Part shown: in pieces, positions 41,385 through 43,679 of the stretch
How positions within the stretch are numbered: the first letter of the stretch is position 1
Layout of the letters: every line of letters begins with the position of its first letter
Source: Octopus vulgaris
Taxonomy: Eukaryota
Assembly (NCBI GenBank): GCA_951406725.2
Contig: OX597822.1
Span: 54,374,001 to 54,438,000 of the forward strand
Direction: 5' to 3'
Length of the DNA: 64,000 nucleotides
Notes under the pieces: generated by a model
Databases searched by the model: none
The model's input: the letters and a program-made list of their open reading frames with translations, nothing else
Told to the model about the DNA's origin: nothing
Program-made: the position numbers and the translations under genes

Positions 41385-41670
41385 TAATTAATTAATAAGG
41401 GTGAGAGAATTAGATACTAATTTAATAGTATATTTATTCAACACCAAGTGGCCTAGTGCTTCGAGAAGACCTGGATTATTATAATATTTTATAACATATT
41501 ATAATATTTTTACAAAATAAATATAAGAGAGTGGTCACTATATTGCTCACTCTAGCACCAGTTAATCCAAAAGGTTTCAACCACGAAAATACATGCTTAC
41601 CATGAAAGTCAGTACGATTGTTAGCTCACACGGACAGGGCAAATAAAAAATAACAAAAATACAGATTATT

Positions 41671-41748
41671 TTGGGACAATTGTTTCGCTATTAATGAATT
41701 AAATGTAATTTTACTTACAAAAAAATCCATTTGTAGCTCGTCAGCCAA
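41671..41748 (-). ncRNA. Type I hammerhead ribozyme (family D, unit 1)
   Basis: UUGG-CUGACGA-GCUA...UAGC-GAAA-C-AAUU-GUC-CCAA. Confidence 0.88.
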
Positions 41749-42205
41749 GACTATCTGGATGAAATCCACTCAATCACACGCCAGATTTTACCATAACGAT
41801 AAATACGCGTGTGGTTCAATTGATTACATCCGACGTTATAATTCAAATGCCCCAACCAACAGCGCGCCAAACTTTCACGGAAAACAAATACAGCATTTAG
41901 AAATAAATGCAGCATAATTATAATTAATTAATAAGGGTGAGAGAATTAGATACTAATTTAATAGTATATTTATTCAACACCAAGTGGCCTAGTGCTTCGA
42001 GAAACCTGGATTATTATAATATTTTATAACATATTATAATATTTTTACAAAATAAATATAAGAGAGTGGTCACTATATTGCTCACTCTAGCACCAGTTAA
42101 TCCAAAAGGTTTCAACCACGAAAATACATGCTTACCATGAAAGTCAGTACGATTGTTAGCTCACACGGACAGGGCAAATAAAAAATAACAAAAATACAGA
42201 TTATT

Positions 42206-42284
42206 TTGGGACAATTGTTTCGCTATTAATGAATTAAATGTAATTTTACTTACAAAAAAAATCCATTTGTAGCTCGTCAGCCAA
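42206..42284 (-). ncRNA. Type I hammerhead ribozyme (family D, unit 2)
   Basis: As unit 1. Confidence 0.88.
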
Positions 42285-42741
42285 GACTATCTGGATGAAA
42301 TCCACTCAATCACACGCCAGATTTTACCATAACGATAAATACGCGTGTGGTTCAATTGATTACATCCGACGTTATAATTCAAATGCCCCAACCAACAGCG
42401 CGCCAAACTTTCACGGAAAACAAATACAGCATTTAGAAATAAATGCAGCATAATTATAATTAATTAATAAGGGTGAGAGAATTAGATACTAATTTAATAG
42501 TATATTTATTCAACACCAAGTGGCCTAGTGCTTCGAGAAACCTGGATTATTATAATATTTTATAACATATTATAATATTTTTACAAAATAAATATAAGAG
42601 AGTGGTCACTATATTGCTCACTCTAGCACCAGTTAATCCAAAAGGTTTCAACCACGAAAATACATGCTTACCATGAAAGTCAGTACGATTGTTAGCTCAC
42701 ACGGACAGGGCAAATAAAAAATAACAAAAATACAGATTATT

Positions 42742-42820
42742 TTGGGACAATTGTTTCGCTATTAATGAATTAAATGTAATTTTACTTACAAAAAAAATCC
42801 ATTTGTAGCTCGTCAGCCAA
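42742..42820 (-). ncRNA. Type I hammerhead ribozyme (family D, unit 3)
   Basis: As unit 1. Confidence 0.88.
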
Positions 42821-43679
42821 GACTATCTGGATGAAATCCACTCAATCACACGCCAGATTTTACCATAACGATAAATACGCGTGTGGTTCAATTGATTACA
42901 TCCGACGTTATAATTCAAATGCCCCAACCAACAGCGCGCCAAACTTTCACGGAAAACAAATACAGCATTTAGAAATAAATGCAGCATAATTATAATTAAT
43001 TAATAAGGGTGAGAGAATTAGATACTAGTTTAATAGTATATTTATTCAACACCAAGTGGCCTAGTGCTTCGAGAAACCTGGATTATTATAATATTATATA
43101 TATATATATATATATATATATATATATATATATACGTAAAGTAAACAGAGAATGGAGAAATATTGATCAACAACAATTGACTAACATCAATTATTACTTG
43201 ATGTTAGTCAATTGTTTGTAGTAAATGTCGGTTGCAATTTGGTTGTTGGACTTTTTAAAAATCAAAATGTCCAGAAATGGAGGCTGTTCCTTGCTATATT
43301 CCATTGTAAATTGAATGTTGGGGAATATATAGTGTTTTACATATTTTTTTTCTCAAGTGAGAATTTATATATATATATACACATTTATACATACACACTC
43401 ACACACACACAAAACGTACATTACTCCACATAACACATACGATAAGTTACTTGTACACATACACACACATACACACACATACACATACACACACAGGTTC
43501 ACATAATTTTCAGCTCGCCCACACATACTCACACACACTCCCCTATTTACACATACACACTCACTGACATCATTCTCACAAACACACGCGTTTGCGCATC
43601 TTAGCTTCGACCGAGTCACCGTTATTATCTCCCTTTCATTCAGCCTCTTTCTTCTGGCCATTTCATCATGTTGAACCAT

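Follow-up and report, generated by a model that had tools for sequence, protein, structure and literature searches.

Non-LTR retrozymes of animals have been described as dispersed non-coding tandem repeats with one type I hammerhead ribozyme per unit (PMC7229834; 10.64898/2026.07.22.740005), the units ranging from 51 to 972 bp (10.64898/2026.07.22.740005). In the axolotl repeats a weak palindromic helix III works as a dimer (PMC7229834), dimeric ribozymes have also been described in Penelope elements (PMC4209133), and one of nine Xenopus retrozyme dimers was reported to cleave in vitro (10.64898/2026.07.22.740005). For the copying of animal retrozymes back into DNA, Penelope-like elements are named as candidates and the mechanism is called open (PMC7229834; 10.64898/2026.07.22.740005). 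Penelope insertions themselves are described as 5′-truncated, accompanied by an adjacent inverted copy, biased toward microsatellites and often provided with a 30–40-bp tail at one end (PMC8557442). In assays with AT-rich DNA, the purified anole Penelope protein nicked both strands and extended them, and reverse transcription began at two internal positions of the RNA, which delimit the tail; the protein is a predicted dimer, and ribozyme cleavage proved unnecessary for insertion in vitro (PMC11167929). A further relative by unit length, pDo500 of Dolichopoda crickets, is a tandem repeat of about 500 bp that has been described as satellite DNA (PMC2837043).

Here we report that a 536-bp element of Octopus vulgaris is, by its tested DNA features, an animal non-LTR retrozyme, for which self-cleavage and a circular RNA are predicted. 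The analysis started from a window of 64,000 nt (the whole stretch of contig OX597822.1 under study), in which head-to-tail units occur in 3.19 copies on the minus strand at 41385–43095 (unit markers at 41385, 41921, 42457 and 42993). Of the full units, the second and third are the same in sequence and the first has one base inserted and one base missing; the last, partial unit carries one substitution, which makes three differences in total across the array. It is flanked by (TA)n-type tracts, a (TA)n-rich target on the 3′ side of the element (39116–41386) and a shorter (TA)n tract on its 5′ side (43087–43134). The unit has a GC content of 32%, no LTR-flanked internal region and no protein coding, the longest stop-free frame of a tandem multimer being 58 aa in the sense and 69 aa in the antisense direction. 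About 3.2 near-identical, non-coding units inside (TA)n had been anticipated by the original prediction, which is borne out in this respect; its remark that reported monomers are mostly shorter needs correction in that 536 bp is ordinary beside the range given above and the length of pDo500.

A descriptor search revealed a type I hammerhead motif on the minus strand of each of the three full units (42733–42829, 42197–42293 and 41662–41757), at a chance rate of 0.01 hits per simulated 64 kb (100 Markov-1 simulations). The cores start from 42816, 42280 and 41744, and the predicted cuts after 42746, 42210 and 41675 would release monomers of 536 and 535 nt, exactly the positions and lengths initially proposed. 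Each motif is complete, with the conserved core, three helices, an NUH cut site and internal loops in stems I and II. Stem I, earlier assigned 4 bp, reaches 13 positions; stem II comprises 52 nt and includes an extra hairpin; helix III consists of 2 bp around a palindromic loop. Two features named in the initial description, a palindromic loop III and additional helices that extend stem II, are present. The designation "canonical" does not apply in the sense of Rfam, whose hammerhead families gave no match at the gathering score and none when E values up to 10 were allowed; the long stem II is the likely cause. An AATAAA does lie where it had been placed, 236–241 nt past the cut (about 240 nt was claimed), but it is not a conserved feature, and its candidacy as a 3′ signal is ruled out by its absence from the sister family described below and by its distance of 45–50 nt from the long end of the element.

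In the 73 genomic arrays analyzed below, 265 copies were scored: the core is standard in 256, carries U4C in seven and shows single other changes in two. All seven U4C copies belong to two of the 73 arrays (L179 and L181), in which the change is fixed, and that lineage has therefore moved with an altered core. The same core spelling was read by eye in L151 and L153, two copies of an autonomous Penelope family. In an alignment of 26 rows (two of them 5′-truncated), 91.2% of the 728 helix cells are paired, versus 30–41% when the helices are slid. Double-sided changes affect 3 of 28 pairs (two in stem I, one in stem II), in a set that amounts to essentially one family split and three events.

The predicted 536-nt monomer between cut sites (42210–42745, minus strand) has no ORF and folds far better than its shuffled versions (z −6.67). 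By nearest-neighbour energies, which include no tertiary contacts, the active fold of the monomer is predicted to be less stable by 7.4 kcal/mol than an alternative in which core and cut site are paired with each other; the predicted probability of this core/cut-site pairing is 0.83 in the circle, and a dimer would gain 6.4 kcal/mol from its loop III duplex, which is below the 7.4 kcal/mol gap. Such a fold would protect a circle from being cut and confine cleavage to multimers, as in the axolotl repeats and the dimeric Penelope ribozymes; it may equally mean that cleavage is slow. Self-cleavage of the unit transcript is a prediction, with some computed evidence against its being efficient.

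A search of the 2.8-Gb assembly with one unit returned 997 candidate places. The best 40 of these, which were scored, contain 228 matches, and the full-length ones are mostly 99–100% identical. A 22-nt ribozyme motif (the 3′ core, across the predicted cut) has 2,134 exact copies against 0 for its control; a 27-nt conserved stretch has 1,662 copies and told us nothing beyond copy number. The first 100 motif copies resolve into 33 loci, which extrapolates to about 700 loci genome-wide, and the unit is present in twenty public runs (12 studies, four organism codes). Among 24 runs, none that contains the unit is recorded as RNA, a blank that is given no weight here. Further analysis was based on 73 arrays, about a tenth of the estimated total: set A, the 40 top-scoring loci (including that of the window), and set B, all 33 loci behind the first 100 motif copies, unselected for likeness beyond the motif. 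The dispersed, multi-copy arrays of variable copy number that the original prediction expected of a genome-wide search were thus found, spanning from 1 to 17 units, and the many independent arrays exclude an assembly artefact in copy number, which had been raised as a possible refutation.

A sister family (L189–L214; 1,800 candidates) is 81% identical to the unit (477/586 columns). Its members keep the core, the basal stem II and loop III, show the double-sided stem changes given above, lack the AATAAA, have two ends homologous to those of the unit and include head-to-head copies; the conserved parts would fit selection on the ribozyme. When a helper was sought with a pattern of a short-stemmed ribozyme carrying this loop III, the 15 matches (control 2) were a derivative shortened by deletion, members of the sister family and motifs not related to the unit, and no partner emerged. 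Further hammerhead-like motifs beside (TA)n, several of them with a long stem II and a palindromic loop III, were noted in L108, L113, L136, L138, L143 and L147 and represent separate families. An older, second hammerhead-bearing fold-back repeat beside (TA)n lies in the window itself (23477–24010, plus strand, motif at 23751–23793); it has 237 candidate places, and among the best 40, which were scored, the top matches are 73–86% identical.

With phase 1 set at the first base after the predicted cut, in ribozyme sense, the 3′ ends of the 73 arrays form two classes, about 161 or about 291 nt past the cut, and 112 of 114 run into (TA)n. The short class was defined as phases 140–200, nearly all members falling at 157–164 (outliers are L038 at 195 and L164, called at 145 owing to a nearby change), and the long class as phases 275–296, mostly 291. 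Apparent 3′ ends at phases 175–195 were discarded as over-alignment into (TA)n, exact extension giving 158–164 in all but L038. The 5′ ends are scattered over phases. A pile-up at the cut site was considered and set aside as a weak excess: 4 of 65 ends lie within 5 nt of it (1.3 expected) and 7 of 65 in phases 1–20 (2.4 expected), both windows having been chosen post hoc. Most arrays have (TA)n on both flanks, which would mask a target-site duplication.

Head-to-head inversions are present in 41 of the 73 arrays, and every one of the 41 pairs a short with a long end. This holds for 25/25 inversions in set A and 16/16 in set B (in the latter, L187 was read by eye and a detached extra fragment in L155 was omitted), and the chance of such an outcome under independent choice is about 0.5^41. 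The 32 single-arm arrays are split 16:16 between the two classes. Both arms exceed one unit in 20 of the 41 head-to-head arrays, with arms reaching 11–13 units; among the 40 scored for length, the longer arm has the long end in 25 and the short end in 15. The array of the window (41383–43095) is a single-arm, long-end copy, 5′-truncated at phase 187. Its terminus at 41383–41389 (phase 285–291) corresponds to the long end of the family, a putative second reverse-transcription start site, while the short end (phase 158–161), the putative first one, is internal here at 42580–42590 and again near 42049 and 41514; all are on the minus strand. Contigs of public runs show loose TA ends at the long-end phase in runs X10, X11, X14 and X20, and at 42585 (short) in X10.

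This two-end pattern is the Penelope footprint of a tail on one end, with a tail of 130 nt (41383–41513 in the window, minus strand). All features of a Penelope-type footprint are present in the family: 5′ truncation, an inverted 5′ copy, the one-end tail and a (TA)n target. The autonomous elements of the same genome (6,136 GIY-YIG candidates, best 150 scored) behave similarly: those encoding RT/GIY-YIG proteins have two ends, separated by 30–40 nt, that run into (TA)n, and all of the inverted copies encountered (three, namely L140, L142 and L151) combine one end of each kind. An open 781-aa frame is found in 16 RT/GIY-YIG copies. A candidate for the helper is a young, (TA)n-targeting Penelope-like family (L135–L150, e.g. 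L148:1589-6810), in which 14 of 15 copies are at least 96.9% identical to L148. It has two overlapping ORFs (479 aa, and 781 aa with RT/GIY-YIG), unlike the endonuclease-bearing Penelope elements as described, which have a single one (PMC8557442), and a 510-bp terminal repeat with two ends about 37 nt apart, in which a U3-A8-type minimal hammerhead was read by eye. A PDB search with the Penelope ORF gave 0 matches.

The window holds a Penelope-like element as well, a 5′-truncated copy adjoining (TA)n at about 24500–27260 (plus strand), which gives a weak Pfam RVT_1 match for its RT and has, by eye, a cysteine-rich linker and a GIY-YIG-like stretch. Minimal hammerhead-like motifs were also seen by eye near 27190–27230 and near 43735–43775.

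Compared with endonuclease-bearing Penelope elements as described (PMC8557442; PMC11167929), the octopus family thus shows the same truncation, inverted 5′ copy, one-end tail and AT-rich or microsatellite target, as well as a ribozyme upstream of the ends and two putative internal start sites. It differs from them in the lack of an RT/GIY-YIG ORF, in a tail of about 130 nt instead of 30–40, and in having up to 17 tandem units, while its one-of-each end pairing (41/41) is sharper than the "often only at one end" reported for Penelope (PMC8557442). With animal retrozymes as presented in PMC7229834 and 10.64898/2026.07.22.740005 it shares the dispersed non-coding tandems with one type I hammerhead per unit, the low GC, the self-paired monomer, the co-occurrence with Penelope-like elements and the unit length. 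On the other hand, fixed twin ends, inversions and (TA)n targeting set it apart from those descriptions, as does the long extra hairpin in stem II; the RNA circle, demonstrated for animal retrozymes (PMC7229834; 10.64898/2026.07.22.740005), is here a prediction. The resemblance to pDo500 extends to a conserved hammerhead and compensatory stem changes in a tandem unit of about 500 bp; that repeat is described as satellite DNA (PMC2837043), and the arrays seen here are short and dispersed and bear retrotransposition footprints. In the openly accessible literature covered, chiefly main texts, we found neither an octopus retrozyme nor twin ends in retrozymes; two of the three supplement files of PMC4209133 contain no cephalopod terms, and the main-text passages covered of PMC7229834 and 10.64898/2026.07.22.740005, whose supplements may list cephalopod examples, do not deal with cephalopods.

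From the match with Penelope insertions, it is highly probable that the retrozyme was moved by Penelope machinery. The Penelope protein as its mover is suggested by the matching end rule and not by homology to any one family: among 50 Penelope loci none has DNA similarity to the unit, and a comparison of the unit with 17 Penelope downstream or inverted segments gave a best local z of 3.9, in AT-rich sequence, and nothing significant. The Penelope link, originally drawn from analogy, is now backed by the insertion anatomy of 73 arrays, and the initial notion of a young non-LTR retrozyme insertion made via reverse transcription is supported.

Which form of RNA served as the template was addressed through unit variation. 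In set A (25 arrays, 111 units), complete units are separated by 0.97 substitutions within arrays and by 4.05 between them; for set B (11 arrays, 53 units) the corresponding values are 1.0 and 14.1. The difference across the two arms of head-to-head arrays is 1.3–1.6 substitutions per unit. Variants carried by every unit form 22 distinct sets in 36 arrays, and 16 variants are fixed in one array each and absent from all others of the 73. It follows that new variants go, time after time, through one unit that is then re-multiplied; rolling-circle copying of a monomer circle explains this bottleneck most simply. The head-to-tail junctions at the cut site are exact in 277 of 279 cases, and scars of ligation or template jumping were rejected, the two remaining junctions differing by one base. 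The template was therefore either ligated or uncut; jumps between cut ends would not be expected to leave exact junctions. Given Penelope machinery, we regard a monomer circle as the reasonably probable template.

Taken as a whole, the scenario that we favor, if only somewhat, has a Penelope-like protein, working in trans, insert a young non-coding retrozyme into (TA)n, most likely by copying a one-unit RNA circle from two fixed starts. Multimeric transcripts of the unit would cut themselves, probably as ribozyme dimers via the palindromic loop III, and a host ligase would close the monomers into a 536-nt circle (both steps modelled on PMC7229834). The Penelope endonuclease would then nick both strands of an AT-rich target (by comparison with PMC11167929), and the two DNA ends would prime reverse transcription at about 161 and about 291 nt past the cut, one site each. 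Copying around the circle more than once would produce multi-unit arms; joining of the two cDNAs would create a head-to-head array, and loss of either arm a single-arm array, as in the window. Points that count against this scenario are the disfavored active fold and the U4C lineage, the weakness of the 5′-end excess at the cut, the length of the tail, the lack of DNA similarity to the 50 Penelope loci compared, and the cleavage of one in nine Xenopus dimers and the dispensability of cleavage reported in vitro. In its most specific form, with one Penelope complex nicking both (TA)n strands, priming at two sites 130 nt apart on a single 536-nt circle and copying from both ends, the proposal is a tentative one, to which we would give slightly less than an even chance.

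The strongest competing explanation, possible but in our judgment unlikely, retains the twin priming and replaces the circle by an uncut linear multimer transcript, with a ribozyme that is slow or acts occasionally and with homogenisation by rare re-expansion of one unit (through re-insertion into the AT-rich sites of the element, re-priming or unequal exchange). It would accommodate the predicted inactive fold and the U4C lineage, the dispensability of cleavage in vitro reported in PMC11167929, and the exact junctions, which fit uncut RNA equally well. Minority variants common to both arms or to scattered units in L043, L051 and L052 likewise speak less for one circle than for a mixed multimer as template or for gene conversion at a later stage. 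Nevertheless, the 22 array-wide variant sets, both arms included, require repeated passage through one unit; the many equivalent sites of a multimer should yield like–like end pairs, of which there are none in 41; 5′ truncation alone would shorten arrays, whereas arms reach 11–13 units; and the core is conserved in the sister family.

A very unlikely alternative is that the units are detached pLTRs of an unsampled autonomous Penelope-like element, their tandems being comparable to the ordinary partial tandems of Penelope. The order of a ribozyme followed by two ends within 70–300 nt is indeed the pLTR layout in this genome, and Xenopus retrozymes are reported to derive from pLTRs (10.64898/2026.07.22.740005). 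In contrast to the Xenopus case, the comparisons described above revealed no Penelope terminal repeat homologous to the 536-bp unit. An RT/GIY-YIG ORF joined to the unit was seen neither in the 73 arrays, which make up about a tenth of the estimated 700 loci, nor in 25 loci of the sister family, and the 279 head-to-tail junctions are free of ORF sequence. Penelope ORFs in the vicinity of L158, L166, L170, L173, L186, L193 and L205 were inspected and rejected as not attached in register; in the nearest cases (L166 and L205), simple repeats and the ORF's own end intervene.

In L033, L036, L069 and L162 a minority variant reappears at a distance of exactly three units, with no strict periodicity; the recurrence may reflect block duplication or a trimer template and speaks against a strict monomer circle. 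Duplication of local blocks may also contribute to the length of arrays. The recurrence and the tandem homogeneous arrays speak for a DNA-level origin as a satellite (by unequal crossing-over or extrachromosomal DNA circles), or for a SINE-like repeat moved by a LINE with ordinary twin priming. Either is nevertheless highly improbable, and the two classes of ends go most of the way to refuting it: a DNA circle would enter the genome at any phase and a LINE uses one 3′ end, while the arrays have strand-specific fixed 3′ ends with both classes used equally, free 5′ ends, no poly(A) tail and strict unlike pairing in inversions.

Run X10 is RNA, as one of its contigs joins three exons of a neighboring gene with the introns uncovered, and X10 contigs fall in 20 of 30 bins of the window array, one of them spanning the ribozyme and the cut site. 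These contigs show presence in RNA, not strand, level, ends or circles, and host read-through would suffice to produce them. The gene in question belongs to the LicD family, with its three exons at 13172–13285, 10698–11129 and 6430–7076 (minus strand). In low-depth contigs of X11 and X14 (41558–41896 and 42981–43065), A>G or T>C differences occur in clusters; they hint at A-to-I editing of both strands but may also come from alleles or other copies. Elsewhere in the window, a very high-copy short SINE-like repeat (11326–11501) is represented by thousands of contigs in four runs, and a 1,100-codon open frame with endonuclease and RT domains (32252–35554, minus strand) is apparently an intact LINE ORF.

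The octopus family is young enough for the ends to be read at the level of single bases, and these ends follow the Penelope rule strictly. It constitutes a genomic test of the two-start-site result obtained with the anole Penelope protein, as reported in PMC11167929, to which it adds the use of one site per DNA end. The strict end rule (41/41), combined with the single-unit bottleneck, makes the questions of the helper and of the circle directly testable in vitro. For this purpose the family provides a 536-nt substrate with a pair of predicted start sites, and the genome that harbors it also contains young Penelope ORFs that are intact. If priming at two sites on a circle is true, the arrays would together document, naturally and on a large scale, how a ribozyme circle of an animal is reverse-transcribed by the rolling-circle route, and the Penelope tail and inversion would be products of one asymmetric twin-priming event. 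It would also name the helper class for animal retrozymes, a helper that would require no sequence homology to its parasite.
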